Shown: positions 33,012 through 55,190, counted from the first letter of the stretch. The stretch: DNA of 64,000 bases from an uncultured Verrucomicrobiae bacterium (GCA_963762565.1 CAVXLD010000010.1:128001-192000); one strand, 5' to 3'. The notes: generated by a model not told the origin, from the sequence alone. Numbers and translations: made by a program.

Positions 33012-34244
33012 GTGACTGTCCCTTCGCTTGCGGAAAGGTTTCGCCCTGATTTCCCGATCCTGGATCAAAGGGTAAATGGATACCCGTTGGTGTACCTGGA
33101 TAACGCCGCTTCAACGCAACGGCCGGCCACTGTGATCGACGAAATCAGCCGCTACTACCGGCACGATCACGCCAATGTTCATCGAGGACTGCATGCGCTC
33201 AGTAATCGGGCTACTACTCTTTACGAAAATGCCCGCCAGCGTGTGGCCAATTATCTCAACGCTGAGCACGCCGAATCGATTATCTTCACCAGGGGCACAA
33301 CCGAATCGATCAATTTGGTGGCCTCTTCCTGGGCCGAAAACGAGCTCAAGCCGGGCGATGGCATTCTACTCACCGAGATGGAACATCACGCCAACCTGAT
33401 TCCCTGGCAGATCGTCGCCAGACGGACCGGAGCTAAACTTCACTTCTTAGCCGTGATTGGAGACGAAGGAGAAATCGATTGGTCCCAACTCGACACGATC
33501 CTCGCGAATAATCCGATCCGAATCGTTGCACTCACGCACATCTCGAATTCACTCGGCCGGATCAACCCGGTAGCAGAAGTATGTCGTGCGGCGCACAAGC
33601 ACGACGCGGTGACGCTAGTCGATGCAGCTCAAAGCGCCGGACACATGCCTCTCGATGTCAAAGCCTTGGATTGCGACTTTCTCGCTTTTTCAGGTCACAA
33701 ATGCTGCGGTCCAACCGGGATCGGAGTTTTGTATGGGCGAAAGAGCCTGCTGGAAAAAATGGAACCCTACCAGACAGGCGGCGAAATGATCGTGAGTGTA
33801 ACTTTTGAACGAGCGGAATGGAAGCCCACCCCTCATCGATTCGAGGCCGGCACTCCGCACATCGCCGGCGCCATCGGGTTAGCCACGGCGCTCGACTATC
33901 TTGACCGGGTCGGACGGACCTCGATTCAAGATAACGATCATTATTTTGGTAACACGGCTGCGAAACGGCTACGTGAAATACCTGATCTGCGTGTGTTTGG
34001 CCCTCGTAATGAGCGAGCGGGCATCGTCAGCTTTCAATTGGGCAACATCCATGCGCACGATCTGGTAGCATTTGCTGATCAGCAAGGGGTCGCGCTACGC
34101 GGTGGACACCATTGTAACCAACCACTTGTCCGTAAGCTCGGACTAAATGCCACCGCCAGAGCCAGCTTCTACCTCTATAATACCGAACCGGAACTTGATC
34201 GCTTAGTCGTGGTCCTCCGCGCGGCCGCAAGATACTTCGGCTAG
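33012..34244 (+). CDS. sufS: Cysteine desulfurase, SufS type
   Basis: YLDNAAS, ANVHRG, FSGHK, FEAGTP and RGGHHC. Confidence 0.95.
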   Translation: MTVPSLAERFRPDFPILDQRVNGYPLVYLDNAASTQRPATVIDEISRYYRHDHANVHRGLHALSNRATTLYENARQRVANYLNAEHAESIIFTRGTTESINLVASSWAENELKPGDGILLTEMEHHANLIPWQIVARRTGAKLHFLAVIGDEGEIDWSQLDTILANNPIRIVALTHISNSLGRINPVAEVCRAAHKHDAVTLVDAAQSAGHMPLDVKALDCDFLAFSGHKCCGPTGIGVLYGRKSLLEKMEPYQTGGEMIVSVTFERAEWKPTPHRFEAGTPHIAGAIGLATALDYLDRVGRTSIQDNDHYFGNTAAKRLREIPDLRVFGPRNERAGIVSFQLGNIHAHDLVAFADQQGVALRGGHHCNQPLVRKLGLNATARASFYLYNTEPELDRLVVVLRAAARYFG

Positions 34245-34481
34245 CCTGCCAGCCTCTCAAATCTGTTACGGATTTGAGAGGCTGGCAGGCTGTGGCCTTT
34301 AGACGGACTATTAGCGTCCGCCTAAAGGCAAAGCATCTTTAAGCGGAGATCGGTTGAAAATCGTGCTAGTGACCCTCGGTAAAACAACCAGTGCAGCAAA
34401 ATTCTCCGGCGTAGCGGAGAATTTTGCTATAGCCTGCGTTCTTCATCAATGCGTAATACATTGAAGAAGAACGCAGGCTAT
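34243..34481. repeat. Cluster of four hairpins between sufS and sufU
   Basis: 34243-34291 (21-bp arms), 34295-34329 (14 bp), 34395-34428 (14 bp) and 34429-34481 (23 bp, reaching into the sufU ATG). Confidence 0.9.
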
Positions 34482-34905
34482 GGACTTCGACGAGCTGTAT
34501 CAAGAGATCATCCTGGATCACTCGAAGCGGCCCCGCAACAGCGGCGTGCTGCCTCCACCCGCGACCCGGGGTTCAGGCTACAATCCGGCATGCGGCGACG
34601 AAGTGACCGTATTCGTTTTGCAGTCACCGGAAGGGAAAATCGAAACCATTTCGTTCCAGGCGCAGGCATGTGCGATCTGCACCGCTTCGACCTCGCTGAT
34701 GACGCTTCAAGTGAAAGGGGCGACTCAAGAACAGGCTTTAGCGTTGCTAAGACATTTCATTGATTTCCTGACCAAGGACGGCCCCAGCGAGGGTTTGGGC
34801 CACTTACGCGCTCTCGCCGGGGTGAAGAAGTTTCCGCAGCGCTTGAAGTGCGCGACGCTCGGTTGGCACGCACTGGAAGCAGCACTAAAGGGCGGGACGG
34901 GGTAG
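34480..34905 (+). CDS. sufU: SUF system NifU-family protein
   Basis: LYQEIILDH..PRN, NPACGD, CAI..AS and R.KCATL.W. Confidence 0.93.
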   Translation: MDFDELYQEIILDHSKRPRNSGVLPPPATRGSGYNPACGDEVTVFVLQSPEGKIETISFQAQACAICTASTSLMTLQVKGATQEQALALLRHFIDFLTKDGPSEGLGHLRALAGVKKFPQRLKCATLGWHALEAALKGGTG

Positions 34906-35019
34906 GCGTATCGGGTGTGGGCGTAACAGCGTATCGGCGTTTGATCCGCGAGATGAACCGATGCGCGCCCGGATCGAATCGGGCGATTTAAATGTGAATT
35001 GTTGGTTTTTGAAACCAGC

Positions 35020-35048
35020 TTGACTTCTAATACGGTCGTACGTATTGG
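35020..35048 (+). promoter_or_regulatory. Putative promoter and TetR autoregulatory operator
   Basis: TTGACT (35020-35025) followed by the palindrome AATACG-N6-CGTATT (35029-35046), just before the tetR GTG. Confidence 0.55.
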
Positions 35049-35053
35049 ATAGC

Positions 35054-35647
35054 GTGCCCAGACATTCTCTCCGTAACCGTATCCTCGAAGCCGGCCTCAA
35101 GGTCATGTTTCGTAAGGGTTACGTCGGAGCCAGCGTGCGCGATATTGTTGCCGAGGCGCCCGCGCCGCAGGGCTCGTTTACCAACCATTTCCGCTCAAAA
35201 GAGGAATTCGTGCGCGAAGTGCTCGACCTCTATTTCGAAAACCTGAAGCAAGTTGTCACGGAGACACTCGGAGACACCAGCCGCACGCCCCGGCAACGGC
35301 TCAAGCGTTATCTCGACTTCATCACGGAGCGTCTGGCCAACGCAGAGTTCAGCCGGGGATGCCTGATTGGTGATTTGAGTCTTGAAGCCGCACCGCAGAG
35401 CCAGATCCTCCGCGAACGCTTGGCCGATATCTTTATCGAATGGCGTACCCCCTTCGCCGCATGCATTGCAGAAGGGCAAGCAGCAGGCGAGATCGCCACA
35501 ACCTTTACCGCTGAAGAGCTTGCTGAGTTCCTCCTGTCCTCATGGGAAGGCGCCATCCTGCGCTTAAAGGTCGTGCGCAACGCCGAACCGCTGGAGCGCT
35601 TTAAACGCATCGCTTTTGCCACCGTATTCAAGGAACCGCCGCTATGA
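35054..35647 (+). CDS. TetR family regulator (NemR-like)
   Basis: HTH ...GSFTNHFRSKEEF, RGCLIG and WEGAILR. Overlaps the downstream start (ATGA). Confidence 0.9.
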   Translation: MPRHSLRNRILEAGLKVMFRKGYVGASVRDIVAEAPAPQGSFTNHFRSKEEFVREVLDLYFENLKQVVTETLGDTSRTPRQRLKRYLDFITERLANAEFSRGCLIGDLSLEAAPQSQILRERLADIFIEWRTPFAACIAEGQAAGEIATTFTAEELAEFLLSSWEGAILRLKVVRNAEPLERFKRIAFATVFKEPPL

Positions 35648-36549
35648 ATCCAGACATCACCCTTCCAAAAACCTCCGTCCTCGATTCCGAAATGGCCTAC
35701 CGGGAGGCGGGCCGGACAGACGCTCCGGTCGCACTCTTCCTGCATGGCAATCCGACATCATCATACCTCTGGCGCAACGTCATTCCGCGTGTCGCAGAGG
35801 TCGCCCATTGCATAGCCCCAGATCTGATCGGTTTCGGCCAATCGGGTAAACCTGATATCGCGTATCGTTTCGAGGATCATGCGCGCTATCTCGACGCTTT
35901 CATCGATAAGGCTGGCATTCGCTCGGCCTACCTTATACTGCACGACTGGGGATCAGGGCTCGGCTTCCACCTGGCAGCACGCCGGCCTGAGTTTGTACTT
36001 GGTTTAGCGTTCATGGAGTTTATTCGGCCGATCCCGACCTGGGAAGAGTTCTTGAGAGATTCGAACGCGCGGGAGATCTTCCGCAAGTTTCGCACCCCAG
36101 GGGAAGGAGAGAAATTGATCCTGGAAAACAACGCCTTTGTCGAGCGAGTGCTGCCGGGCTCGATTGTGCGCAAGCTCAGCGAGGAGGAGATGGCCGTCTA
36201 TCGATCCCCCTTCCCGACGCCAGAATCACGGCGGCCAACCTGGCGCTTTCCGAATGAACTACCGATTGCCGGACAGCCGGCCGACGTCGTTGCGACGATC
36301 GAAAAAGCGCTCGCAAGTCTCGCAGCGTCCACCTATCCGAAGCTTCTCTTCGCGGCGGATCCCGGCGCCCTAGTCCCACCGGCCATAGCAGAAGATTTCG
36401 CCCGCAAGCTTCATGATTGCGAATTAGTGAGGCTCGGCGCAGGCATACACTATTTGCAGGAAGATCACCCGGACACGATCGGTAGATCGGTTTCTGAATT
36501 CATTGCTAAAGTTGAGGAACGCAGGGCCAAGAGCATGGCCACATCCTAG
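35644..36549 (+). CDS. Haloalkane dehalogenase (HLD-II like)
   Basis: FLHGNPTSSYLWRN, HDWG nucleophile, FME acid and HYLQED base. Confidence 0.92.
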   Translation: MNPDITLPKTSVLDSEMAYREAGRTDAPVALFLHGNPTSSYLWRNVIPRVAEVAHCIAPDLIGFGQSGKPDIAYRFEDHARYLDAFIDKAGIRSAYLILHDWGSGLGFHLAARRPEFVLGLAFMEFIRPIPTWEEFLRDSNAREIFRKFRTPGEGEKLILENNAFVERVLPGSIVRKLSEEEMAVYRSPFPTPESRRPTWRFPNELPIAGQPADVVATIEKALASLAASTYPKLLFAADPGALVPPAIAEDFARKLHDCELVRLGAGIHYLQEDHPDTIGRSVSEFIAKVEERRAKSMATS

Positions 36550-36822
36550 TGTCCTGTCCCATAAGTAACGTGGCGTTCGCCGTCGGTCAGTTGGCTGTTT
36601 TTCAAGGCGCGAGCGAAGCGCCCATATCTGGTTCATACGGGTCGAGCGAGCAACGCGGAAAAACAGCCAACTGGCCACGGCCCGGAGGGTTGCGATGAAA
36701 ATGGGCCGGCGGCTGCGTTGCTCGTCGGTTACGTATCAATCTAGATATGCGCCCTCCTCGCGCCTTGCCGGCGGCCCATTTTGATCGCAACGAAAGCCAC
36801 GTTATTTATGGGACAGGACACT
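36548..36822. mobile_element. Non-autonomous MITE-like element, 275 bp
   Basis: 27-bp TIR AGTGTCCTGTCCCATAA(G/A)TAACGTGGC (1 mismatch) with two internal, mutually inverted hairpin modules. It starts within the TAG stop of the dehalogenase. Confidence 0.8.
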
Positions 36823-36938
36823 CGTACGAGCTAAGGCGACAAGTCTTTTGGTCCTCTCGTCGTCCAACTACACTCCCTCACTCCGCGCCGCTAGATTCGA
36901 GGACGAGGACGATTACGATTGGACACGCCCCCACGCCA

Positions 36939-38621
36939 TTACGCTGTATTCCCCAGCTCCTGCGTGCCAAGGTCCAGGGGGCTGGCAGGCATGGTACCGG
37001 GTTTGCTTATCAGCGACACATGACTGAGAAGCTCTCGGTTTACACAGAGAAAAACGCGTTCGGTGGGCGGATCTTGTCCAACGTGCAATGTTACCGCTTT
37101 CTCTAAGACTTCTCTCTCGGATTGAGTGTATCGCTCCTTTTGCAACAGGTGCTCTGTCCAGGACGGCATCATCATTTCGATGCGGTAAACATTGGCTCGC
37201 CCGAGGTCCTCATGAAGGCGCCAGCTAAAGGCTCCGTTGCGAAGATGAATCAGGCGAACCTGGCGGAGCAACGTAATGAACTCAGACCCTCGATGGCGAT
37301 CGACCTCGAACTCGTAAGTGATCGAGATAGGTCCATCGTGCGGTCGCGGAATATGTAATAACTTATGCGAGAAACCGGTAACCGGGGCTGGATTGAAATT
37401 GAGCTCGCTGACGAAATTGAGAGAAAGCGGGATCGAAAGGAGAAGGCTCAACAAGAGTAACCCAGAGGCGATCTCCAGCGTAAAAGTGACGCCTAGGGTA
37501 CTGGCTAGAATACCCCAGATGATACCGCCCAAGGCCATGGCGCCTTGAGAGAACATGATAATAGTAGCGTTCATTCGACCACGAGCCCAATCGGGCATAG
37601 CCCGCTGGCTGACGACCCAAAGTTCGGATGCCGCTAGCGTCCAACCAATCCCGGCTACGGCCGCGATAGCCATGAACAACACATGGTCTACGACCAAACC
37701 CATCCCGATGTACACCAGCACTAACAGAACGCTCGAAGAGAGAATGATTGAATTGGAAGAAAGGTGATCCCGGGCTTTCGGCACCACAAACACCGCTCCG
37801 AAGACGGATCCGGCGCCCATGCAGGTGAACAAAAGTCCCAAACTCGATGGCTCGAACTTCAGCTTCTGCAGACCAACAACGGGAAGCAGAGCAGGGATTA
37901 CACAGATAAAGAGTGAGAACAAAACGTTACGCGCCAGGACGACTCGGAGTCCGGGGGCAAAACGGACATAACGAATTGCGGTCGAGAACGATTCTAAGAA
38001 ATTCTCTAGGGGCAGCTGGGAGTTTCGTACCGGACGTTTCCACTGCGCGATCGCAAAAATTACGAGGAAGAAACAGAGGGCGTTGGTGGCGAAGATCCAG
38101 CTGGGAGAAACAAATCGTAAGGCTAATCCACCGATAGCTGGTCCGATAATACCGGAAATATTGAAGGATAGCCCGCTTAAGGTGGAAGCCGAGGGCAACT
38201 CTTCATTTGTAACAATTTCAGGCACTATTGCCGTCCAGGCGGGCGCATTGAAGGCAAAACCGACCCCGGTTAGAAAAATACAAATCAACACCAGCGCCGG
38301 AGTGAGCCAATGAAACGCAAAAAGCAGCGCCAGCAGAGCGGCAGTGAGCGCCAGCCATAAATTCATAAAACGCAAGAGCTTCCGCCGATCGACCATGTCC
38401 GCCAAAGCACCGGCAGGGAGCGTGAACAAAAAGAAAGGGAGAGAGGCGACCGTCGACATCAAGGAAAGCAAGAAGGCTGACGGGCTAAGCATATTCATCA
38501 CCCAGGTAGCAGTGGTGTCATGTGCACTAATGCAAATGCTCGACAAAAGGCTAGCCAACCAGATTCGACAGTAGGTCGAATTACGGAGCGCGGTAAAAGT
38601 GGAAGAGTGATGATTAGACAT
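36939..38621 (-). CDS. MFS transporter (MFS_3/DUF894 type) with soluble C-terminal domain, paralogue 2
   Basis: PAGALAD..DRR, PAW, P.WARGR; C-terminal R.GAFSW.L.ED...W.EHL.Q. Confidence 0.9.
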   Translation of the reverse strand: MSNHHSSTFTALRNSTYCRIWLASLLSSICISAHDTTATWVMNMLSPSAFLLSLMSTVASLPFFLFTLPAGALADMVDRRKLLRFMNLWLALTAALLALLFAFHWLTPALVLICIFLTGVGFAFNAPAWTAIVPEIVTNEELPSASTLSGLSFNISGIIGPAIGGLALRFVSPSWIFATNALCFFLVIFAIAQWKRPVRNSQLPLENFLESFSTAIRYVRFAPGLRVVLARNVLFSLFICVIPALLPVVGLQKLKFEPSSLGLLFTCMGAGSVFGAVFVVPKARDHLSSNSIILSSSVLLVLVYIGMGLVVDHVLFMAIAAVAGIGWTLAASELWVVSQRAMPDWARGRMNATIIMFSQGAMALGGIIWGILASTLGVTFTLEIASGLLLLSLLLSIPLSLNFVSELNFNPAPVTGFSHKLLHIPRPHDGPISITYEFEVDRHRGSEFITLLRQVRLIHLRNGAFSWRLHEDLGRANVYRIEMMMPSWTEHLLQKERYTQSEREVLEKAVTLHVGQDPPTERVFLCVNRELLSHVSLISKPGTMPASPLDLGTQELGNTA

Positions 38622-38811
38622 GCGTCTAAAAAGGGGGGAGTAAGAAAACGGGGTAAAATTCCCTCAGGCTGAAGACTTTGACAACTGCATTAAGGCAGTA
38701 ATTGGGAGGAGTTTAATAAGGCAGCCAGTTTCGAAAAGTGAAACTAATTCAAAAGGTCATTGATCTTAGTTCACCCTGCCTCCAGACAAAGCGATCAGCG
38801 ACTATCAAACG

Positions 38812-40476
38812 CTACACGCTGTAGCCTGCTTGGCTGACCTCGTCTTCCGGCGTTTCCAAGTTCGTGGAGTTTAGCCGGCGAGTCATCAGTTCCCGGTGCA
38901 CGGATAGATAATGCTTTACCAAAGGCCCGTCTGAAGCCGAGGTGTGCAGACTCCACGTCCTCCGCCAAACCGCCAGCTCGTTTTTGGTCATTCGCTTGTG
39001 CTGTTCGAGATGCTCTGACCACGACGAAACCATCATTTCCATTCGGAACCGGTTCGGCTTTTCCAAGTCCTCGTCCAACCTCCAACTAAACGCTCCATTT
39101 CTCAGGTAGATGAGGCGCATCTCCCGCATTAGATCGAGAAAACGACGCCGGTTTTCCTGTTCAATTTCAAACACCATCACCACTACCACGGGTCCATCTG
39201 AAGGATCAGGTAGGTGCAAGAATCGATGGTACTGGGTCGTTAACGGAGCCGGATCCAGGTCCAGTTGCTTGGTAAAATCGATCGAAAGCGGGAAGGCCAA
39301 AGACAAGCTGAAGATTAGAAATAGCGCAGCGGCGATTAGCGCGAACTCGACGTTGACGCCGGCGGCCAGCGCACCCCAGGTGAGCCCACCCAACGCCAGA
39401 CCACCCTGAGAAACCATCATGTGCGTGGCGTTCATTCGCCCACGAGCCCAGCTGGGCATGGCTCGCTGGCCGGCCACCCACAACTCCGAAGCAGTCAGCG
39501 TCCAACCAAGTCCAGCCAATGCCGCGACTACCATGAACAAATTCGTGTCCCGAACAAAGGCCATCAATAGAAAAACAAAAGCCAGCAACAGATTTGCCAG
39601 AATGGTCAAGGTATTAGCGGAGAATTTGGCTCGGGCTCGTGGAATCACCACCACCGCTCCGATCACCGAACCGACTCCCATAGATGTGAACAACAGACCC
39701 AACTTAGATGGGTCCAGACCCAGTTGCTTGAGACCGACCACGGGCAACAGCGCCGGGATGACCGCAATAAAAACCGCGAAAATCACATCACGCACCAACA
39801 CAACCTGAATCCCCGGGGCGTATCGGATATAGCGGACCGCGCTGGCTAACGAATCGAAGAAATTTTCCAGCGGCATTTTTGGGGTTGCATAAACGCGGCC
39901 CCACCCAGAGAGAGTCAGGAGGAGAAGGAAAAAACAGATCGCATTTGCCGCAAAAACAAACTGAGCGCCGAACCTCGCTAGTACCAGACCGCCGATGGCC
40001 GGGCCGATAATACCCGAGATGTTAAGTTGAAGCCCACCCAGAGTGATGGCAGAGGCTAATTGTTCCTTCGATACTACTTCGGGAACAAGGGCCGACCAAG
40101 CCGGCGCGTAGAAACTGAAGCCAATCCCGATTAGAAAGACGGATAAGAGAATCAGGTATGGGTGAAGCCAGTTTAGTCCTGTCAACAGCGCTAAGCCTCC
40201 TGCAACAGCGCCGAGCCAGACATTCATCACGCAGAGGATCTTGCGCCGGTCAGTCATATCGGCCAAAGCGCCGGCGGGTAGCGTAAAAAGGAAAAACGGG
40301 AGCGATGCGACGGTCGAGATGAGCGAAATAAGAAAACTCGAATGACTCAGTCTGCTCATCAGCCAAGTACTGGCCGTGTCATGCGCGGAAACGCAGGTAC
40401 CCGATATCAAGCTCATCACCCAAAGCCTTTTGAACAGAGGGTTTTGCAATGAAAGAAACGTGGAAGTCTTCGTCAT
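38812..40476 (-). CDS. MFS transporter (MFS_3/DUF894 type), paralogue 1
   Basis: Same motifs; colinear and highly similar to 36939-38621. Confidence 0.9.
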   Translation of the reverse strand: MTKTSTFLSLQNPLFKRLWVMSLISGTCVSAHDTASTWLMSRLSHSSFLISLISTVASLPFFLFTLPAGALADMTDRRKILCVMNVWLGAVAGGLALLTGLNWLHPYLILLSVFLIGIGFSFYAPAWSALVPEVVSKEQLASAITLGGLQLNISGIIGPAIGGLVLARFGAQFVFAANAICFFLLLLTLSGWGRVYATPKMPLENFFDSLASAVRYIRYAPGIQVVLVRDVIFAVFIAVIPALLPVVGLKQLGLDPSKLGLLFTSMGVGSVIGAVVVIPRARAKFSANTLTILANLLLAFVFLLMAFVRDTNLFMVVAALAGLGWTLTASELWVAGQRAMPSWARGRMNATHMMVSQGGLALGGLTWGALAAGVNVEFALIAAALFLIFSLSLAFPLSIDFTKQLDLDPAPLTTQYHRFLHLPDPSDGPVVVVMVFEIEQENRRRFLDLMREMRLIYLRNGAFSWRLDEDLEKPNRFRMEMMVSSWSEHLEQHKRMTKNELAVWRRTWSLHTSASDGPLVKHYLSVHRELMTRRLNSTNLETPEDEVSQAGYSV

Positions 40477-40730
40477 CTCGTGCTCGGCGGCCGTTTTTGG
40501 TCCAATATGTCTCTCCTAATCTCTAGAGCGAGCCGGCCGCCCTCGCTAGGCTACGCGCGCCATCGCGGAGTCAGAAACTCACCCCTGCCGAGCCTAAGCC
40601 AGTTCTTAACCTGGACAAATTGCTATTTGAGTCCTGGAACCGGATGCCGGCTCTTCGATTCCAACAGCAGACCCCTCGGAACAAGAGCGCTTGTAACCAA
40701 AAAGAACCTTGACTTATATGGAGCTAACTT

Positions 40731-41456
40731 ATGCCCTTGCTGAATTCCGAGCAGTCGGCCGACTCTCCGGATGTCCCCCCCATGGTAATTAAACGTTCAC
40801 CAAAGATTATCCTGGAAGGCACCCGCCTGACGGGAAAGACCGATCTAGCGTTTGCTCTCAATGAGCACCCGCGCATTATCGGAGTTAGGAAATATCGCTA
40901 CCACTCGCCGATCATCTCAGCCGAGTGGAACGGTTTTACTCGAAGTCCGTACGGCGCCAGCTTGATTAATTTCACGCCCGCGTACGAAGAGTTGGCGATG
41001 GAAGCTTATCGCACCTGGGCCAAACTCTTTGAGCTTTACCGGTACTACTCTTGGATCGTCGACCGGTTCCACATCTCGACTCAAGTGTGGCAATCGATCT
41101 ACGCAAAGCGGCACTATGATTTCACCTGGTTAGAAAAAAGACTGGTGCCTCTTGGATTCCGTTTAGTCCTTTGCTGGCGACGTCCTGACTCGTTTGAAAA
41201 GGCCAGACAACGCCGGCTGGCCATCTCGAGCAACCCGTCACAATACGAAGATCTACAGATTTTTCTTCGGGAACAAGAGGTCATGCAAGAACTGTTCGAT
41301 CGATCGCTTCTTCCGAAAATGGTCGTGGATGTAACCGATAAAAGTCCAGACGAAATGGTTACGGATGTGGCCGACTGGTTAGAGGCTACCGGCGCGCTAA
41401 CCGTGCCCGACATGGAGCCAATGGTGGCGGAAGAGGATAACATCCTTGATCACTGA
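40731..41456 (+). CDS. P-loop nucleoside monophosphate kinase-like protein
   Basis: IILEGTRLTGKT and WIVDRF (thymidylate-kinase-like DR motif). Substrate unknown. Confidence 0.6.
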   Translation: MPLLNSEQSADSPDVPPMVIKRSPKIILEGTRLTGKTDLAFALNEHPRIIGVRKYRYHSPIISAEWNGFTRSPYGASLINFTPAYEELAMEAYRTWAKLFELYRYYSWIVDRFHISTQVWQSIYAKRHYDFTWLEKRLVPLGFRLVLCWRRPDSFEKARQRRLAISSNPSQYEDLQIFLREQEVMQELFDRSLLPKMVVDVTDKSPDEMVTDVADWLEATGALTVPDMEPMVAEEDNILDH

Positions 41457-41532
41457 TTACTTTCTCGTTCGTGTGCCCGCCGCAATTCTTGCCAAGAGCC
41501 TTTATTAGCCTCATCTTGGAGGCACCCTTTCT

Positions 41533-42838: not shown

Positions 42839-42842
42839 TGAA

Positions 42843-44060: not shown

Positions 44061-44106
44061 ATTGTCCAGTTTCCCAAATTTAGCGCGCCAGTTGCTTACC
44101 TATCGC

Positions 44107-46283: not shown

Positions 46284-46367
46284 CAAAGCATTTGCCTGGT
46301 CCGCCGATGACTACTACTGTCGCCATCCGGATGCGGGATAGCTTGCACGTACCTATTATTTGGCCAG

Positions 46368-48845
46368 ATGGGAAAAACGCTCGTCATCGCTGAAAAACCA
46401 AGTGTCGCTCTCGACCTTACGAGGGCGCTCGGCCGGTTTGAGAAGAAAGGTGATTATTTCGAGAATGACCGATTTGTCGTGTCATCGGCAATCGGCCACC
46501 TGGTCGAGCTCTGTCTTCCGGCAGAATTAGACAAGAAGAAGGGTAAATGGAGTTTTCAGAGTTTGCCGATCATCCCCGACGAATTCCAACTCAAGCCGAT
46601 AGCAAAGACGGAGAGCCGGTACAAACTTCTGCGGCGTCTAATGGAGCGGCCGGATGTTACCGAGATCGTCAACGCGTGCGACGCCGGACGAGAAGGAGAA
46701 CTCATCTTCCGCTACCTGGTAAGGCTAGCAGGCGCTAAAAAGCCCTTCAGCCGCCTTTGGTTGCAATCAATGACAGCGGACGCTATCAGGTCAGCGTTCG
46801 CTCATCTTAGGACAGACCGCGAAATGATTCCGCTTGCGGAAGCGGCTGTTTGCCGATCCGAAAGTGATTGGCTTGTTGGCATCAATGCGACGCGCGCGAT
46901 GACCGCCTTTAACTCAAAGGTTGGCGGCTTCCAACTCACACCGGTTGGACGCGTACAAACTCCCACCCTCGCAATCCTGGTCGAGCGAGAAGAGAGAATT
47001 CGCCGGTTTGAACCCAAGAGTTACTGGGAAGTCGTAGCCGACTTCAACGTTTCGGCGGGTACTTTTCGCGGTCGCTGGTTCGATGAAGGGTTTCAGAAGG
47101 ATGCAGACGAAGGTCGGCGTCCAGAGCGAATTTGGACAGCGGAACAGGCAAACGCGATCCATGACAAGGTGCTCGGCAAATCCGGCACCATAACAGAAGA
47201 GAAGAAGCCAACTACTCAGGCGCCTCCCCTTCTCTACGACCTGACTTCTTTGCAACGGGAGGCTAACGCCCGTTTCAGTTTTTCCGCGCGACGGACTCTG
47301 CAGATCGCGCAACAGCTTTACGAGCGTTACAAGGTGATCACCTATCCAAGGACTGATTCCAGGTATCTGCCGGAAGACTATCTCGGCACCGCCAGCAACA
47401 TTCTGGGCCACCTGGCAGATCCGACTCTGGCTCCAGCAGCCAGGAAAGCATTGGCCAATAACTGGGTCCGGCCAAGTAAACGGATCTTCGACAACGCCAA
47501 GATCACCGACCATAACGCGATCATCCCAACCGGCCAAAACCCGCGAAACCTGGACGAAGCGCAGCAGAAGCTTTTCGATATGATCGCTCGACGCTTCGTG
47601 GCGGTTTTTTATCCGCCGGCCGAGTTCGAGGTGACCACGAGAATAACGCGGGTTGAAGGCGAAGCGTTCAAAACGGAAGGCAAAGTTATCAAGGAACCGG
47701 GGTGGCTGGAGGTATACGGCCGTCACGCAGCTACCGATGAACAGAGCGACGCATTGGTCGCCGTTGTAACGGGAGAATCCGCCCTTGCCGCCCAAGTTGA
47801 GGTCAAAGAGAACCAAACCAAACCTCCGGCTCGCTACACAGAAGCTACCCTGCTTTCGGCCATGGAAAGCGCTGGTAAACTGGTCGACGACGAGGATCTC
47901 CGTGAGGCGATGTCGGCTAAAGGCTTGGGAACACCAGCAACCCGCGCGGCCATCATTGAAGGATTGATTCAAGACAGCTACATCAATCGTGAGAATCGCG
48001 ACTTGATTGCTACGGCTAAAGGAATCTCGCTGATCACTCTTTTACGAGGCATCGGTATCGAGTTGTTATCCTCCCCTGAACTGACCGGCGAGTGGGAACA
48101 TAAGCTGAAGCTGATGGAACACGGCGACCTCGACCGGTCGACGTTCATGAAGCAGATCAAGCACTTGACCAGCGAGATCGTCGATAAAGCCAAACACTTC
48201 GAAAGCGACGTCGTCGAAGGAAATTACGTTACGCTAAACGTCCGGTGTCCAAACTGCGGCGCCTCTTATCTAAAGGAGGATTACCGAACTTATCACTGCG
48301 AAAACTGTGAGTACCGGCTTTTCAAGAATTTGGCCAGCCGAGAACTCAGCCCAGCAGAGGTAACCACTCTGATCAGAGAACGAAAGGTAGGACCGCTAGA
48401 AGGATTTCGAAGTAAGACGGGCCGGCCGTTTGCTGCCTTGGTGATTCTCAATGACGACAACAAGCCGGAATTCGCCTTCGAGAGCGGTCTGTCCTCCAAC
48501 AACATCCAAATAGATCCGGAACAGCACACTGCTTTGGGTCTGTGCCAAGTGTGCAAATCCGGTCAGGTCTACGATGTAGGCCCAGCTTACATCTGCGAGA
48601 ATGTTTCGAAGGGCTCTTGTACGTTCAAGATGAGCAAGACCATTCTCCAAAGAGAGGTCCCGCCTGACCAACTCAAGAAAATGCTCACCGAGGGGAAAAG
48701 CGATTTGCTTCGACGTTTCATCTCTAAGAAGGGAAGGCCGTTCGACGCATCGCTAACCCTAGTGGATGGGAAAATCGGTTGGGAGTTCGCCAAGCGCGAA
48801 GCCCGGCCCCGCCGGAAGAAGCCGGAGTCGATTCCAAATGCGTAA
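46368..48845 (+). CDS. topB: Type IA DNA topoisomerase (Topo III-like)
   Basis: IAEKPS, CDAGREGE, GRVQTPTL, ITYPRTDS, GLGTPATRA and C-terminal Zn-ribbon-like repeats. Confidence 0.9.
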   Translation: MGKTLVIAEKPSVALDLTRALGRFEKKGDYFENDRFVVSSAIGHLVELCLPAELDKKKGKWSFQSLPIIPDEFQLKPIAKTESRYKLLRRLMERPDVTEIVNACDAGREGELIFRYLVRLAGAKKPFSRLWLQSMTADAIRSAFAHLRTDREMIPLAEAAVCRSESDWLVGINATRAMTAFNSKVGGFQLTPVGRVQTPTLAILVEREERIRRFEPKSYWEVVADFNVSAGTFRGRWFDEGFQKDADEGRRPERIWTAEQANAIHDKVLGKSGTITEEKKPTTQAPPLLYDLTSLQREANARFSFSARRTLQIAQQLYERYKVITYPRTDSRYLPEDYLGTASNILGHLADPTLAPAARKALANNWVRPSKRIFDNAKITDHNAIIPTGQNPRNLDEAQQKLFDMIARRFVAVFYPPAEFEVTTRITRVEGEAFKTEGKVIKEPGWLEVYGRHAATDEQSDALVAVVTGESALAAQVEVKENQTKPPARYTEATLLSAMESAGKLVDDEDLREAMSAKGLGTPATRAAIIEGLIQDSYINRENRDLIATAKGISLITLLRGIGIELLSSPELTGEWEHKLKLMEHGDLDRSTFMKQIKHLTSEIVDKAKHFESDVVEGNYVTLNVRCPNCGASYLKEDYRTYHCENCEYRLFKNLASRELSPAEVTTLIRERKVGPLEGFRSKTGRPFAALVILNDDNKPEFAFESGLSSNNIQIDPEQHTALGLCQVCKSGQVYDVGPAYICENVSKGSCTFKMSKTILQREVPPDQLKKMLTEGKSDLLRRFISKKGRPFDASLTLVDGKIGWEFAKREARPRRKKPESIPNA

Positions 48846-48963
48846 CAGCATTTGGAATCGATTCCGGCTACGACCGCGAACATCCCGGCTATAGCCGGGA
48901 CATTCGCTGTAATAGCCAAGATTTAAGGGAAAATGCTCGATCATTTTCCCTTAAATCTTGGCT
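48820..48963. repeat. Cluster of three hairpins at the convergent topB/ppk1 ends
   Basis: 48820-48869, 48876-48907 (core CCCGGCTATAGCCGGG) and 48914-48963. Confidence 0.9.
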
Positions 48964-51152
48964 TAGGCTGGCTGGTCTACGCCCCCGGACACTTCTTTCT
49001 TGCCCGGCTGCTTCACTACGACCGGCTTAACTTCCAGCTCTGGCCGTTTCCGTTTGGTCAAACGTTCCAAAAACAAAGCCTGACAGTCAAGCGGGTGCCC
49101 ATCAGGATGCATCTTCGCATAAGTTAGCTCTGAGTTTTGTTCCCGAGCCTTAACGTTGTCAGCCCAATAAGTATTGATGATCTCATCGAGATGAGTCCGG
49201 TGATCCGGATCCTCGACCGGGAAGCAGCTTTCTACCCGCCGGAAAAAGTTCCGCGGCATCCAGTCTGCACTCGCCAAATAGAGCTCGGGATGTCCCCCGT
49301 TTTCGAATCGGTAGATTCTGCTGTGCTCAAGGAACCGCCCAACAATGCTCCTCAGAGTAATATTATCACTAACCCCGGGGACATGTGCTCTCAAGCAGCA
49401 GATACCGCGCACTAACAGTCGAATCTTAACCCCAGCTTGAGATGCCTGATAGAGCGCCTCGATTACCTCCGTATCAACCAGCGAATTTAATTTAGCGAAG
49501 ATTGCAGCCGGTTTGCCCGCCTTGGCATGCTCTGTTTCCCGCTCAATCATATCGAGCACAAACTCGTGCAGTTTTTTCGGTGCCGCCTTGATCTTGACCA
49601 GTTCCGGAAAGACAGAGACCCCAGTCAACCAATTGAAAAGCTCAGCGCAATCGTTGGTTATAACCGGGTCGCAAGTCAATAGACTTAGATCTGTGTAAAG
49701 GCGGGCAGTGGATGGATGATAATTTCCAGTTCCAAGATGCAGGTAACGCCGGATACCTTCCTCTTCTTTTCTGACCACGAGCGCCATTTTCGCATGGGTC
49801 TTTAGGCCGACGATGCCGTAAACCACATGAACGCCGGCCTCTTGCAGCGTGTGCGCCCACTTGATGTTAGCCGCTTCATCGAACCTCGCTTTCAATTCGA
49901 TCACGACGGTTACCTGTTTCCCACTCTCCCCTGCTTGGGCCAAAGAAGCGATGATGGGCGAATCTCCGCTGGTCCGATACAGCGTCTGCTTTATGGCTAA
50001 AACACTCGGGTCTTCGGCGGCCTGTTCAATAAAATCCAAGACCGTCTGAAAACTGTCATAAGGATGGTGTAGAAGCATCGGCTTACGCCGGACTTGGGTA
50101 AAGATATCGTCTCCATCCGTGCCCGTGACCACTAACGGAACAAAGGGCTTATATTTGAGATCTGGCCGATCGACTCCAGCGACAACCGGCATTAAACGAG
50201 AGAAGTTGATCGGGCCGTCTACGGCGTAAAGGTCATCTCCGTCCAAACCAAACGTTTGCAGAAGCTGATCGGACACATGACCGGGACATTCCTTCTGCAC
50301 TTCCAATCGGACCGCCGCACCTCGATTCCGCTTGCGCAGCTCGATCTCGATCGTCTTCAGCATGTTCTCCGCTTCTTCCTCGTCCAGATAGAGATCGCTG
50401 TTTCTGGTAACCCGGAATTGGTAGGCGCCTTTTACTTTCATGCCATGGAATAGAGATCCCACGTGCGCCTGAATCAGATTGCCAATAAAGATGTATCGAT
50501 AAATTCCTCGTTCTCCCGCTTTGTAGGGTAAGAGTCGCGGTAAAATGCGCGGCACCTGCACCACCGCCAAGCTGGTGCCCAGCTCACCGCCTTCGAGCTC
50601 AACGGCGACATTTAGGCTTTTGTTTAGTAACTGCGGAAACGGATGCACGGGATCCACAGCCAGCGGAGTTAGAACGGGATAAACAGACTTCTCAAAATAA
50701 TCTGTGTAGTACTTCTTTTCGTCATCGCTTAGGTCATCCCAGCTAAGGAAAAAGATGTGTTGCTCCTCCAGTCCCGGCACCAAGACCTCGTTCCAAACCC
50801 GATATTGATCGTCGACCATCCTTCTCACCCTCTTCGAGACGGCGACCAGTTGTTCATTGGGGCCCATGCCATCCGGACCAGCCGCGCTCACTTTGCTGTC
50901 CCTTTGCTGTTTTAGTCCGGCCACCCGAATCTCAAAGAACTCGTCTAGATTCGAACTGACAATACAAAGGAATTTTACGCGCTCGAGTAACGGGTTCGCC
51001 GGGTCTTGCGCCTCTTCCAGCACACGCTGATTGAATTCTAGCCAGCTCAGTTCCCGATTAGTATAGAGGGCGGGATCGTTAAACGTTGGAGCTTTGGACG
51101 CTTCCATAATCTTCTTTTGCGGGAGAGGGCGAGCTTTTCGTTTCTTCTGCAT
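48963..51152 (-). CDS. ppk1: Polyphosphate kinase 1
   Basis: NRELSWLEFN.RVL, HHPYDSF, ARFDE..NI, KTHAK and ADWMPRN. Confidence 0.98.
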   Translation of the reverse strand: MQKKRKARPLPQKKIMEASKAPTFNDPALYTNRELSWLEFNQRVLEEAQDPANPLLERVKFLCIVSSNLDEFFEIRVAGLKQQRDSKVSAAGPDGMGPNEQLVAVSKRVRRMVDDQYRVWNEVLVPGLEEQHIFFLSWDDLSDDEKKYYTDYFEKSVYPVLTPLAVDPVHPFPQLLNKSLNVAVELEGGELGTSLAVVQVPRILPRLLPYKAGERGIYRYIFIGNLIQAHVGSLFHGMKVKGAYQFRVTRNSDLYLDEEEAENMLKTIEIELRKRNRGAAVRLEVQKECPGHVSDQLLQTFGLDGDDLYAVDGPINFSRLMPVVAGVDRPDLKYKPFVPLVVTGTDGDDIFTQVRRKPMLLHHPYDSFQTVLDFIEQAAEDPSVLAIKQTLYRTSGDSPIIASLAQAGESGKQVTVVIELKARFDEAANIKWAHTLQEAGVHVVYGIVGLKTHAKMALVVRKEEEGIRRYLHLGTGNYHPSTARLYTDLSLLTCDPVITNDCAELFNWLTGVSVFPELVKIKAAPKKLHEFVLDMIERETEHAKAGKPAAIFAKLNSLVDTEVIEALYQASQAGVKIRLLVRGICCLRAHVPGVSDNITLRSIVGRFLEHSRIYRFENGGHPELYLASADWMPRNFFRRVESCFPVEDPDHRTHLDEIINTYWADNVKAREQNSELTYAKMHPDGHPLDCQALFLERLTKRKRPELEVKPVVVKQPGKKEVSGGVDQPA

Positions 51153-51287
51153 CCTTTAGTGAGTGGAAAAAGCCGGCGCGACTGTAGTTCTGTGACGAAT
51201 TCGTCATAAATGGGCGGGGGCCGGCGCAATCCCCCTATTTCGGCTCTCGGCTGAGCTGCTTCAAGTCTGGAGTTGGGGGAAAAGGTT

Positions 51288-51487
51288 GGCGCCACCTGTG
51301 GAGCGTGCCTCGCTTGCGAGGCCGTGGTAAGCAAGGGCGGATGGCATGGAAGGCCCACCGCCTCACTGCGCTCTATCGCCAAAAGAGACAGCGTTGCCGA
51401 TAGAGCGCTGACTTAAAAGGAGCGTGCACCACCCTATTCCCTTGTTCACCACAGCCTCGCAAGCGAGGCGCGCTCCACGAGTGGCGA
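51288..51487. repeat. Family B REPIN-like element
   Basis: GTGGAGCGTGCCTCGCTTGCGAGGCCGTGGT plus an inverted copy. The inner GCGCTCTATCG / CGATAGAGCGC hairpin parallels that of 7087-7287. Confidence 0.85.
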
Positions 51488-51511
51488 CCCCTGGTCGCCC
51501 CACCTACACAC

Positions 51512-52189
51512 TCAATTCCGGCGGCTCAGCAAAAAGTAGTACAGCAGATAACTTAACGACGTAATGAAAGCAGCCACGTAGGTAAACGCGGCTGCATCGA
51601 GAACACCGTTAACCGCTTGGGTCTCTTGCGGCGATCGCATCAAACCCATCTCGGCCAGGACTCGTTTTGCCCTAGCGGAGGCGTCAAATTCAACCGGCAA
51701 TGTGATTAGGTTGAAAAGCATTATGATCGCCCAAGCGAAACAAAGAAGCATAAACATCGGCGCCAAAAGGTGGGTAAACCACCCCACCATTGGCAAGATC
51801 CACACAGCCTGACTGGCGAATCCTACCAGGTTGACCGAGGCCATTCTCCAGTTCAAAGGAGCGTACGCTTGCTGATGTTGCAGCGCGTGACCGCACTCGT
51901 GGGCAGCAACTCCCATCGCGGCGGCGGACCTGCCTTCAAAGTTCCCCGGAGATAAGACCAGACGGTGATTTAAGGGGTCATAATGGTCCGTCAGCAAATT
52001 GGCTGATTCAACAATCTCGACATCTCCGATACCGGCCCGTTGGAGAATGCGCGCGGCTACTTCGGCTCCACTCAGTCCCGAAGAATTCGGCACTTGGCTG
52101 TATTTGCTATAGGCGGATTTAACGCGCCAGACAGCCCACAGAGACAGGGCCATTGTCCCAAAAAACGCCCAAAGACCAAAAGGATTCAT
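51512..52189 (-). CDS. Membrane zinc metallopeptidase (YugP-like)
   Basis: LTDHYDP, AAHECGHALQ, TLPVEFDAS.RA and AA.TYVA. Confidence 0.92.
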   Translation of the reverse strand: MNPFGLWAFFGTMALSLWAVWRVKSAYSKYSQVPNSSGLSGAEVAARILQRAGIGDVEIVESANLLTDHYDPLNHRLVLSPGNFEGRSAAAMGVAAHECGHALQHQQAYAPLNWRMASVNLVGFASQAVWILPMVGWFTHLLAPMFMLLCFAWAIIMLFNLITLPVEFDASARAKRVLAEMGLMRSPQETQAVNGVLDAAAFTYVAAFITSLSYLLYYFLLSRRN

Positions 52190-52270
52190 TTTATAGATAA
52201 AAGACGAACCCAAAGATACGCTCTGGAACAAAAACGGCAACCGGGCCGCCCCTCGCCTGAGGCTCGGCGC

Positions 52271-52555
52271 GCCTGGAGGGGAGCCGCTTCGGTACGTGCC
52301 GGGTGATCCTCGCACATTCGCCTCACAACGTGCCAGTCTGAGCCACAAGACAGCAGGCGGCTCCCGGGAATTGCCCTGCGCGTTGCAGATCGATTCGGTG
52401 TGTAGGAAATTGACCTCGCAAGACACCTTGGGCACGGCATCGCCGTGGGTGACTCCCGGGAGCCGCCCGTTGCGACATTTTTTGTTCGGATTGAGAGCTG
52501 GAACAAAGGTCGCGAGGTCGCCGGGCACACATACCAAAGCGGCTCCCCTCCAGGC
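52271..52555. repeat. Family C, copy 2
   Basis: 19-bp perfect TIR GCCTGGAGGGGAGCCGCTT plus the inner GGCGGCTCCCGGGA pair. Confidence 0.85.
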
Positions 52556-52641
52556 AATCATCCCTAAGGCGAGCTCCGACACGGCATGGGAGCTGCTTTA
52601 TCGGAGCTTGATCTTTGTCGCCTCCCTGGAAATCATATCGC

Positions 52642-54081
52642 ATGGGCAAACTGTTTGACGGTTACGACCCAAATCCGTTCTTCGACGAGATGTTCATGTC
52701 GCCGGCGCAGGTCCGCCCCCATTACCAGCGCCTCTTCGAGCGATACAGTGATCTGACCGTGGGTGAGTTCGACCGCAAAAGGTTAGTGGCCGACAATTCG
52801 TTTCTGACCCAAGGCATCACTTTCACCGTCTATAATGACACCGAGGGGACCGAGCGAATCTTTCCTTTTGATTTGGTGCCGCGGATAATTCCGCTGAACG
52901 AGTGGCTCCATATCGAGGCCGGACTCACGCAACGGATCGCGGCGTTGAACTTGTTCCTTCGGGACATCTATCACGAACAGAGGATCCTGAAGGATGGAGT
53001 GATTCCTGCCGAAATCGTCCATAGCGCCGTCCACTTCCGCCCGGAATTCATGGGATTTAAGGTTCCAAAAGATATCTACATCCATATCTGTGGGACTGAC
53101 CTCGTTCGCGACCGGGACGGCAATTATTTAGTGCTGGAGGACAATGGCCGCTGTCCGTCTGGCGTTTCTTATCTTCTGGAGAACCGGCAAACCATGAAAC
53201 GGGTATTTCCGAATCTCTTTTCGCGTTATTCAGTACAGCCAGTTGATCGGTACTGTGAGGAACTGCTGAACCTGTTGCGGTTCGTGGCTCCCGGCGGAAA
53301 TCCCGAACCGACCGTGGTACTCCTCACTCCCGGGATCCACAACTCTGCTTACTTCGAGCATTCGTTTCTAGCTAGGTCGATGGGCATCGAGATCGTAGTC
53401 GGAGCTGACCTCGTGGTGCAGGCCGGCTATTTGATGATGAAGACCACGAAAGGTCTGAAAAGGGTGGACGTAGTCTATCGGCGAATCGACGACGACTTTC
53501 TGGACCCGCAGGTTTTTCGAAAAGACTCACTACTAGGGGTTCCCGGCCTGGTTGAAGTCTATCAGCACGGCAACGTGAGTTTAGCGAATTCCATCGGCAC
53601 CGGTGTGGCGGATGATAAGGTGACTTACCATTTCGTTCCTAAAATGATCCGGTATTATCTCGACCAGGACCCGATCTTATCGAATGTCCCTACCTACCTC
53701 TCGATGTTCGATGATGACCGCAAGTATATACTCGAACACCTCCCGGAACTGGTGGTAAAATCGGCTAACGAAAGCGGCGGCTACGGAATGTTGATCGGCC
53801 CTCACGCTACCCGCGAGGAAATCGAGAAATTTCGAGACCTGATCACCAATAACCCCCGTAACTATATTGCGCAGCCGGTGGTTCAGCTGTCCCGGTCTCC
53901 TTCTTTTGTCAGTGGTCGCTTCGAAGGACGGCACATCGATTTACGGCCGTACATTCTGTTCGGAGAAAAGACGACAATCATTCCGGGAGGCCTGACGAGA
54001 GTCGCTCTGCGAAAGGATTCATTGGTCGTTAATTCGTCGCAAGGCGGTGGCAGTAAGGATACCTGGGTTCTTAGTGAGTAA
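52642..54081 (+). CDS. Circularly permuted type 2 ATP-grasp protein
   Basis: [16 protein letters not shown]...[25 protein letters not shown] and [14 protein letters not shown]. Confidence 0.95.
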
Positions 54082-54129
54082 ACGTTGAAAAAAAACAATC
54101 ACACGTTTTAGATTGGGTTCGCGCCAAAG

Positions 54130-55101
54130 ATGCTTTCCCGAGTTGCCGACACCCTCTATTGGCTGAGCCGTTATATCGAACGGGCGGAGAACAATGCCCG
54201 AATGCTGGACGTAAACCTCCAGTTAACGCTGGATGCTACCATTCTAAACCATCGTTACACCCAGCAGCATTGGGAGTCGATTATCTACTCACTAGAAGAT
54301 ACGAAACTGTTTCAGGAGCTCTATCCGGGCATCAGCGGTGAGACAGTGGTCGATTTCGTCTCATTTGAGCGCAAGAACCCCAATTCCATTTATTCCTGTT
54401 TGTGCTCGGCAAGAGAGAATGCCAGAAGCGTGCGCGAGCTGATCTCGTCCGAGATGTTCGAGCAGTTGAATCGGATGTACTTGGATTTCCGGTCTGGGGA
54501 AGCGGAACGACTCTTTCGTTCCAGCAGTTATCAATTCTTCAAATGGGCGCTTCAAGGCTGCCATCTCTTCCAGGGGATCGCCGACGCCACCATGGCGCAT
54601 GATGAAGGTTGGAAATTTCTTCAGCTCGGAAAGTTTCTGGAACGAGCGGACCGGACCTCCAGAATCCTCGACATTAAATATCATATCCTGCTTCCTAAAG
54701 AAGAGCAGGTCGGTGGCACGATTGATAGTGTACAGTGGTTCGCCGTTCTTAATTCGTGCAGTGGCGCCGAGGCGTATCGGCGACAATTCCAGGGGCAGGT
54801 CGCACCCTGGAAAGTCGCGGAATTCTTGATTAAAGATGCTTCTTTTCCGCGTTCGATCCGCTTCTGTGTCGATTCTCTCGACCATTCCTTGCATCAGATC
54901 ACCGGGGTCGATCGAGGCGATTTCCTTTACAAAGTCGAAGCGGAACGGCTCTCGGGTAAACTCCTGGCCGATCTATCCTTCGTGACCATGGACGATGTAT
55001 TCAGGATCGGGCTCCATGAATACTTAGACGGAATCCAGCTGAGATTGGGTGAGATCAGCAAGACAATCTACAAAGAATTTTGCGAATGGCTGGATAGCTA
55101 A
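54130..55101 (+). CDS. Alpha-E domain protein
   Basis: MLSRVA..LYW..RY.ERAE, ARENAR..R, LERAD.T.R.LD and FPRS. Confidence 0.95.
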   Translation: MLSRVADTLYWLSRYIERAENNARMLDVNLQLTLDATILNHRYTQQHWESIIYSLEDTKLFQELYPGISGETVVDFVSFERKNPNSIYSCLCSARENARSVRELISSEMFEQLNRMYLDFRSGEAERLFRSSSYQFFKWALQGCHLFQGIADATMAHDEGWKFLQLGKFLERADRTSRILDIKYHILLPKEEQVGGTIDSVQWFAVLNSCSGAEAYRRQFQGQVAPWKVAEFLIKDASFPRSIRFCVDSLDHSLHQITGVDRGDFLYKVEAERLSGKLLADLSFVTMDDVFRIGLHEYLDGIQLRLGEISKTIYKEFCEWLDS

Positions 55102-55190
55102 GGCAGGCGCCTTAGCTATCCAGCCATTCGTAAAATTCTAGTAGCCAAAGTGGGTGCGAGAGGCGTACGCCTCTCGCACCCATTTTGGCT
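55074..55190. repeat. Two abutting long hairpins at the convergent alpha-E/cysNC ends
   Basis: 55074-55139 (31-bp arms, 1 mismatch) and 55143-55190. Confidence 0.9.

Follow-up and report, generated by a model that had tools for sequence, protein, structure and literature searches.

The 64,000-nucleotide window analysed here is part of the genome of an uncultured Verrucomicrobiae bacterium (GCA_963762565.1, CAVXLD010000010.1:128001-192000). Five near-perfect palindromes in it lie at the boundaries of genes for a class-V aminotransferase (SufS-like), a NifU_N protein (SufU-like), a topoisomerase, a polyphosphate kinase and CysN/CysC (Table 1). We find that the five are real copies of a dispersed non-coding repeat of the repetitive extragenic palindrome (REP) class, here called family A, and that this repeat is best read as a long-stemmed, doubly tagged variant of REPs and bacterial interspersed mosaic elements (BIMEs). 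The genome that holds the window, G000, is represented by a 6.1-Mb assembly of 15 contigs.

The five copies read AGCC...GGCT, span 48-50 bp and have arms of 21-24 bp with 0-1 mismatch. As RNA they are predicted to fold with -32 to -45 kcal/mol (z is ∼-10 compared with shuffles). The positions reported in a first-pass annotation of the window hold, and open reading frame (ORF) coordinates together with Pfam matches bear out its claim that every copy touches a translation boundary. The absence of a U-tract, which it had also noted, is confirmed: no T-run follows any of the five, an intrinsic terminator being a G+C-rich stem and then a T-run, and a terminator scan of 34150-34600 was empty. A promoter and terminator scan of the sufS-sufU spacer returned nothing, and Rfam gave no matches at gathering score in window 33000-57000. 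Contigs from four independent soil DNA runs were compared with 34100-54000; none of the pieces and differences listed touches the hairpins, which has no bearing either way. A look-up of RNA data sets that contain the window listed none.

A hairpin scan of the whole assembly (arms of at least 14, at most one mismatch, loop of at most 12, no requirement on the ends) returned 152 hairpins, compared with 5 and 2 in two base shuffles within 1-kb blocks, where no arm exceeded 15. A genome-wide search of the kind proposed with the first-pass annotation yields a clear excess over shuffled DNA, and it also recovers the ends: AGC..GCT ends are found on 46 of the 67 hairpins with arms of at least 18, and 38 of the 46 are 48-50 bp long. 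A looser census (AGC..GCT ends, length of 40-60 bp, at least 17 of 20 outer pairs) gave 77 loci. Fourteen were dropped because they belong to a 42-bp CGAGCCG family or to arrays of the words ATAGCC/ATAGCA, or have lengths outside 46-51 bp. The 63 loci that remain define family A; all are 46-51 bp long, and 57 fall within 48-50 bp. A covariance model built from them finds ∼10 further copies in the genome.

The 63 copies share an arm consensus, (t)AGCCTGC aTcGCT .. AAATGC, followed by a 4-7-nt loop (genome-wide arm consensus AGCCTGCATCGCTCAAAAATGC). In the 22-bp stem the base (positions 1-7, AGCCTGC, usually preceded by T) and the tip (positions 17-22, AAATGC, and the loop) are conserved, and the middle ten pairs are free. 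A T precedes 40 of 63 left ends and 35 of 63 right ends, and a G stands at position -2 in 12 and 10 of them, respectively. Nearly half of the copies (31/63) have no mismatch in the 21 outer pairs. The proposal of a family with fixed length, ends and tip and a covarying stem is therefore upheld, but the arm interiors are not unrelated as had been thought: the consensus exists, the window copies are among the more divergent members, and the prediction that a sequence-identity search would miss the family fails. Convergence of the centres on CGTA is a minor trait (CGTA or TACG in 11 of 63 copies). Our literature search for such repeats in Verrucomicrobia and for effects of REPs close to stop codons found no paper on this family. 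A-type arms around a long loop, with ∼30-45 extra bases, were seen at G000:C7:506261-506341 and at the C7 IG3 junction of the relatives G005 and G002, so that either insertions into the loop are tolerated or the element has a form with a long loop. A separate search, in which AGC-headed arms were paired at distances of up to 4 kb, also showed several pairs of AGCCTGCATTTCTC.. whose gaps measure 27-40 nt.

Departures from the consensus are shared between the two arms of a copy. There are on average 5.9 left-arm departures per copy, and 338 of the 373 departures are mirrored in the right arm; the two arms of one copy differ at 0.86 positions on average, compared with 8.5 between copies. In the alignment of family A 96.6% of the cells are paired and 19 of 22 pairs have changes on both sides, whereas slid-partner controls pair at 32-42% only. 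Doubly changed cells amount to 327 versus 70 ± 6 in shuffles, and none of 500 shuffles reaches the observed value. Mismatches read on the sense strand, which is the strand of the abutting gene, comprise 6 G-T, 8 A-C and 10 others, and a tally of the per-pair alignment table gives ∼18 G-U/U-G cells versus ∼47 non-pairs.

The same gene junctions were recovered from five genomes of the same genus as G000, giving 11 orthologous sites, 27 comparisons with G000 and 540 pair positions. No change is seen at 401 of these positions, whereas 82 have compensated double changes (43 transversion-type, 39 transition-type) and 57 have lost pairing in one of the two genomes; mismatches among the orthologues are G-T in 15, A-C in 12 and other in 25 cases. 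Arm positions 8-17 have diverged by 0.285 and positions 1-7 by 0.14, and sufS by 0.41-0.42 at third codon positions and 0.05-0.09 at first and second positions. The core thus drifts at about two thirds of the silent rate while staying paired. The unpaired centre of the sufS-sufU spacer is 60-66% identical, and third codon positions show 75 transitions versus 50 transversions.

Filled, empty and scarred sites all occur among the orthologues. In the sufS-sufU spacer all four hairpins are kept in place in G005 and G003, with different and compensated cores, the copy at 34243..34291 included; this copy is missing from G004, which has no first hairpin, from G002, which carries an unrelated repeat-armed insert, and from G001. 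The copy at 34431..34479 has four compensated pair changes relative to G000 in its orthologues in G005, G003 and G004. In G001, G012 and G018 the spacer is ∼15 nt or less and free of hairpins. At the junction of the topoisomerase and kinase genes the copy at 48820..48869 is found in G005 (all three hairpins), G002 (two abutting copies) and G003 (a single copy, whose right arm gives a TGA to the kinase gene), and G004 holds a scar only (AAACCTGCATCGGCT) that joins the first left-arm bases to GGCT. The copy at 55143..55190 has heavily changed, compensated cores in the orthologues of G002-G005 and is missing from G001; the 66-bp palindrome next to it at 55074..55139 is kept in G002-G005 with compensated changes and has a larger loop in G001. 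Decayed or truncated copies (for example C11 IG1 in G002-G005), one-arm remnants and scars are seen, and the same post-stop site is taken by other palindrome families in G003, G005 and G002. The overlap with the stop shifts by one base between orthologues (TAAGCC versus TAGCC). No loop inversion between orthologues was seen by eye at the compared junctions.

Contact with stop codons extends beyond the window. In G000, 29 of the 126 element ends lie directly against the inward-facing stop codon of an open frame that has 100 codons or more, compared with 41/2520 and 34/2520 in shifted controls. Bases are shared with the stop in 23 of these 29 ends, the element giving the A of TAA or TGA in 10 and the AG of TAG in 13. 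In G009, a relative from another genus, 16 of 40 ends adjoin an inward stop and 9 complete a TAG. Start codons are not enriched by a loose test (17/126 ends versus ∼11% in controls). The 51 regions that hold A are unidirectional in 30, convergent in 8, divergent in 9 and unclear in 4 cases, on a baseline of 2914 unidirectional, 883 convergent and 877 divergent gene pairs; divergent spacers are thus not depleted (9/47 classified regions versus 19%).

A partner hairpin, B, starts ∼3 nt (2-3 nt) from exactly one end in 29 of the 63 A copies. Its consensus is GCAGCAGAAT..CCGGC-TAC-GCCGG..ATTCTGCTGC. The outer stem of B varies, its shoulders are GAAT..ATTC, and its apex, CCGGC-GTA/TAC-GCCGG, includes the word GTAGCC. 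A lies on the gene side and B on the spacer side in 18 to 0 discriminating cases, as would be expected if A lies against the coding end and B against A. The CAT/ATG consensus in the flanks of A stems from the A-to-B linker and not from start codons. In 16 spacers the copies are paired, 94-280 bp apart, in the order A-B-centre-B'-A'. Such pairs could suggest a miniature inverted-repeat transposable element (MITE), but their centres are unrelated by BLAST. A single composite MITE of this layout was considered and rejected for the same reason. Genes between A copies are ordinary ones (RlmN, ECF sigma factor, YkuD-domain protein, ABC transporter, DapF, FIST protein), and a Pfam search of 21 ORFs around A clusters or between copies found ordinary genes or nothing.

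Family A is specific to one family of the order Chthoniobacterales (Verrucomicrobiota). The covariance model, whose hit counts include both strands, found A in 14 of 18 genomes in a first sample of this taxonomic family, with 14 to 126 hits in the genus of G000 and 74 to 115 in three other genera, and gave no hits in four genomes of the same family or in any of 12 genomes that each represent a different other family of the order. When the taxonomic family was sampled a second time, 18 of 24 genomes had hits, with counts of 0 to 110. The covariance-model search proposed earlier therefore confines the hits, among the sampled genomes, to one taxonomic family. A strict pattern run over 185,579 species genomes matched 8 loci; the 4 records that contain them all have Verrucomicrobiae or Chthoniobacterales in their titles. 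In G009 the top 20 copies occupy other sites and lie close to the consensus, which is the profile of a proliferating repeat.

The fixed ends of A recur beside transposase genes of the same clade. G000 has 12 Y1_Tnp matches, and four of its five short Y1 genes, which resemble REP-associated tyrosine transposases (RAYTs), lie between inverted repeats with (GGT)AGCC(T/A)GG and a hairpin; ATAGCCTAGGG hairpins enclose the fifth. The ends of these flanking repeats recur in at least 13 pairs that span 160-220 bp and enclose no gene, and in relatives repeats built of AGCC and a hairpin border 12 of 20 short Y1 loci. AGCC, usually as (G)TAG+CC, is therefore the REP tag of the clade, and the fixed ends of A are this tag on both sides. 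A as a whole is a candidate substrate of Y1/HUH transposases, in favour of which the shared tag and the 12 Y1_Tnp matches speak.

As an account of the whole we lean, though not strongly, towards a selfish repeat of the REP class that is served in trans by RAYTs and whose arms are kept paired by copying. Among the three origins offered in the first-pass annotation, a single-stranded DNA substrate of an HUH/Y1 enzyme fits best, as AGCC is the tag of the RAYT-flanking REP hairpins; neither an RNA signal nor a collapsed MITE fares well. RAYT-type Y1/HUH transposases would find (G)TAG+CC at the base of the REP hairpins that border their own genes, and on a folded single strand such an enzyme could read tag and shape of A and move or maintain it. 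Service in trans of this kind is probable, judging from the sequences compared. A change in one arm would be copied onto the other, by intrastrand template switching or hairpin-directed repair that yields ready-made double substitutions, so that the core of a copy can drift and the copy still remains a near-perfect palindrome. Such arm-to-arm copying at the DNA level probably keeps the arms paired. The lack of a G-T excess, transversion-type compensations that are as common as transition-type ones, and the use of divergent spacers point to a strand-neutral DNA process rather than to selection on RNA pairing. Over evolutionary time new intergenic sites gain copies, which persist for a period, decay, lose parts or give way to other hairpin repeats. 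Since the element starts with (T)AG it can complete TAG, TAA or TGA, which would place copies flush with coding ends; loss of spacer DNA between maintained features could also bring A flush with them. Where transcribed, A hairpins may block exonucleases or hinder ribosomes as side effects.

Several observations weigh against this explanation. A itself flanks none of the 25 short Y1 loci (5 in G000 and 20 in relatives; flanks of ∼1.2-1.5 kb, less at contig ends), the single A copy near any of them lies 1.4 kb from the gene, and the Y1-flanking repeats have only the AGCC tag in common with A. A hairpin scan of 8 Y1-locus flanks (arms of at least 11) found no A copy, and eight PF05635 loci together with three long Y1 loci gave one weak 17-bit hit only, so that PF05635 genes are not associated with A. 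Y1 genes are present in 29 of 31 genomes, some of which have no A, and hence do not separate A-bearing from A-free genomes as the co-occurring gene family sought from the outset would; conversely G017 (74 hits) and G010 and G018 (21-22) have weak, partial or long-type Y1 matches only, in assemblies that are 79-87% complete. The case for arm copying is built on substitution patterns, selection on pairing could contribute, and some orthologous copies have three or more mismatches, so that a correction of the arms, if real, is not absolute. The rules of the census (AGC..GCT ends, 17 of 20 outer pairs) partly build in high pairing and invariant ends; the end-free scan lifts the concern about the ends alone, and the pairing bias stays. 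The proposed steps account for the stop overlap only in part, and its concentration at offsets 0 and +1 could reflect a target preference. Finally, A is 46-51 bp long and near-perfect over 22 bp, whereas REPs are 20-40 bp and usually imperfect, and the full GTAG of GTAG-tagged REPs is found in a minority of A ends (at most 12/63).

The alternative that survives best, though we regard it as unlikely, is that the hairpins are RNA signals of the host, selected for pairing as mRNA end caps, with 3' hairpins directly at stop codons and 5' hairpins directly at start codons, or as processing sites, with an RNase III-sized stem, and spread by duplication. Ends flush with stops (29/126 versus 1.6% in controls, and 16/40 in G009), copies inside operons such as sufS-sufU, the retention of pairing across a third-position divergence of 0.41, the high stability of the stems as RNA and the orientation of A towards the gene and B towards the spacer are all consistent with it. 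The pattern of substitution is not: G-U pairs on the sense strand show no excess over A-C (6 versus 8), G-U/U-G cells are rarer than non-pairs, and evolution through wobble intermediates should favour transitions, the opposite of compensations that are 43 transversion-type to 39 transition-type at a time when third positions change by 50 transversions to 75 transitions. Sites are not conserved between genera, with sufS-sufU empty in G001, G012 and G018, copy number ranges from 0 to 110 among related genomes, and unrelated palindromes replace A at the same site. The use of divergent spacers and the absence of a T-run and of an Rfam family argue in the same direction, and the first-pass idea of an RNA processing or stability signal is hence not supported.

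A related scenario, which we consider improbable and which none of our results favours, is that the host has co-opted the A and B hairpins to punctuate its mRNAs throughout the genome. The 3' end of a cistron would be capped by a 22-bp hairpin whose first bases complete the stop, and the 5' end of the next by a mirror hairpin that ends at the start codon. An RNA-binding protein, or an RNase that is specific for structure, would recognise the conserved base and tip. If true, a selfish REP family would have turned into a standard gene-boundary signal of the clade.

Very improbable in our view is that A copies are duplex or cruciform DNA sites of a host protein, which would make its contacts at the conserved base and tip, much as gyrase or IHF binds the BIMEs of E. 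coli. The conserved sequence at positions 1-7 and 17-22, a distribution that does not vary with spacer type, in line with a strand-neutral role of the DNA, and the Watson-Crick-only pairing would suit such sites. A duplex binder has, however, no need of a palindromic, unconserved middle, several related genomes with zero copies argue against an essential host role, and no candidate protein was found. The least probable origin is from ordinary transposons or MITEs that belong to several insertion sequence families, of which A copies would be collapsed footprints or solo terminal inverted repeats. This reading draws on the paired copies and on a T before and an A after the element that hint at a TA target, but there is no direct target duplication (a CAT left flank is paired with right flanks that start with T), no coding element is bounded by A arms, and A-type arms paired at up to 4 kb are long-loop variants and other families only. 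A TA target duplication was rejected, as A at position 1 is invariant while T at -1 is found in only 63%.

Family A extends the range of REP-type repeats to a hairpin that is long, nearly perfect and tagged at both ends, in a soil phylum that has received little study, and gives the resident RAYT-type enzymes a concrete second candidate substrate. Dozens of orthologous hairpins with cores near the silent rate, paired and without wobble preference, form the pattern expected if stems are kept intact by template switching rather than by two independent mutations under selection, and A could serve to measure template switching in wild bacteria. For annotation, covariation of a stem in these genomes is on its own no evidence of a functional RNA.

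The window contains further repeats. Palindromes whose arms are made of tandem 7-8-base words lie at 42724-42834, 9335-9443, 11280-11401, 13208-13311 and 32871-32944; this type replaces A at orthologous sites in relatives, and one such palindrome has gained a 7-base unit (AACTTAT at 42810) in two soil runs. The 275 bp at 36549-36823, which contain several inverted repeats, are skipped in contigs of two independent soil runs and have a summed contig depth of ∼100x that of the flanks, and look like a very common repeat with presence/absence variation. The word AGCG(T/C)GCCTCGCTTGCGAGGC occurs in arrays with a period of ∼42-43 bp and in inverted pairs (Table 1); the bin 50700-51363, which overlaps the start of the copy in the window, has a very high summed depth in soil runs. 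At 2778-2823 lies a perfect palindrome, AGTGTCCTGTCCCATAAATAAC, whose arms are 22 bp long; this word recurs beside AGCTAG arrays elsewhere in the genome. At 52289-52354 ∼60 bases are replaced by different stretches of 24-29 bases in contigs of all four soil runs, which marks a hypervariable spot inside or beside an ORF.

Table 1. Palindromes, partner hairpins and related repeats in the window and elsewhere in G000
Feature	Position	Strand	Remarks
Family A palindrome	34243..34291	.	its AG completes TAG (34242-34244) of class-V aminotransferase (SufS-like) ORF
Second hairpin, inner side of first A copy, position of partner hairpin B	34295..34329	.	compensated changes; kept in G005 and G003
Partner hairpin B, apex CCGGCGTAGCGG	34395..34428	.	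two bases before next A copy; orthologues in G005, G003 and G004
Family A palindrome	34431..34479	.	ends one base before ATG of NifU_N (SufU-like) gene; ORF start 34480
Family A palindrome	48820..48869	.	left arm is last 8 topoisomerase codons; TAA stop in loop; ORF end 48845
Middle hairpin, apex CCGGCTATAGCCGG, B-like	48866..48917	.	between two A copies; in G005, not in G002
Family A palindrome	48914..48963	.	last T common with TAA of polyphosphate kinase gene (minus strand); ORF end 48963
66-bp palindrome in partner position	55074..55139	.	3 bases from A copy; left arm is last codons and stop of Alpha-E gene (54130-55101), right arm its inverted copy
Family A palindrome	55143..55190	.	last T common with TAA of CysN/CysC gene (minus strand); ORF end 55190
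Short Y1 (RAYT-like) gene in long inverted repeats	G000:C7:408608-409320		(GGT)AGCC-tagged small hairpin and GTCCCGTAGGGAC hairpin
Short Y1 (RAYT-like) gene in long inverted repeats	G000:C3:712369-713093 (RAYT-type ORF at 712536-712877)		as above
Short Y1 (RAYT-like) gene in long inverted repeats	G000:C3:55329-56052		as above
Short Y1 (RAYT-like) gene in long inverted repeats	G000:C1:118906-119536		as above
AGCG(T/C)GCCTCGCTTGCGAGGC site	window 51302-51474		
AGCG(T/C)GCCTCGCTTGCGAGGC site	G000:C3:903971-904266		
AGCG(T/C)GCCTCGCTTGCGAGGC site	G000:C7:122280-122623		
AGCG(T/C)GCCTCGCTTGCGAGGC site	G000:C7:254006-254426		
AGCG(T/C)GCCTCGCTTGCGAGGC site	G000:C12:6793-7190		

Although the first-pass annotation knew of no named family with such rules, A is REP/BIME-like. 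GTAG-tagged REPs and REPtrons (PMC3733652, PMC8266576) are, like A, stem-loops dispersed outside genes; a conserved short tag marks the foot, and the stem is read partly as shape. Di Nocera et al. 2013 (PMC3733652) report that GTAG REP termini supply TAG stops to flanking ORFs; these termini and an uneven abundance among relatives are both found in A. The tag of A, (T)AGCC, equals the tag and the first stem bases of the REP hairpins beside the RAYT-type genes of the clade. Unlike GTAG REPs, A has tag-like bases at both ends and does not avoid divergent spacers, and unlike a REPtron, in which a RAYT is flanked by the same REP family, it flanks none of the 25 loci.

MITEs differ from A by their target-site duplications and by a coding element bounded by the same arms, neither of which accompanies A. 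REP doublets forming hairpins (REPINs; Bertels and Rainey 2011, PMC3116915) are closer: they are symmetric hairpin units with conserved ends and a less conserved middle, for which movement by Y1 enzymes as single-stranded DNA is proposed and in which compensatory changes on both sides are common. A shares with them the long hairpin and the compensated changes. A REPIN consists of two palindromic REPs and a spacer, whereas the arms of A are not self-complementary and its loop has 4-7 nt; the classical REPIN-like pairs of 160-220 bp that G000 also contains are a family separate from A. E. coli BIMEs are mosaics of y, z1 and z2 REPs (PMC8266576). A is mosaic in the same sense, being joined to B at a fixed 2-3 nt in 29 of 63 copies and arranged as A-B-centre-B'-A' in 16 regions, with units that differ from those of E. 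coli in sequence and size. The correction of quasipalindromes by template switching (PMC7202029, PMC8794818) is a known mutational route that turns imperfect inverted repeats into perfect ones and gives double substitutions that look simultaneous; repair of stems in this way is described in PMC8794818. This is a mechanism rather than an element family, and for A, where comparative patterns point to it, it would fit both transversion-type compensations that are no rarer than transition-type ones and a core that changes at a near-neutral rate.

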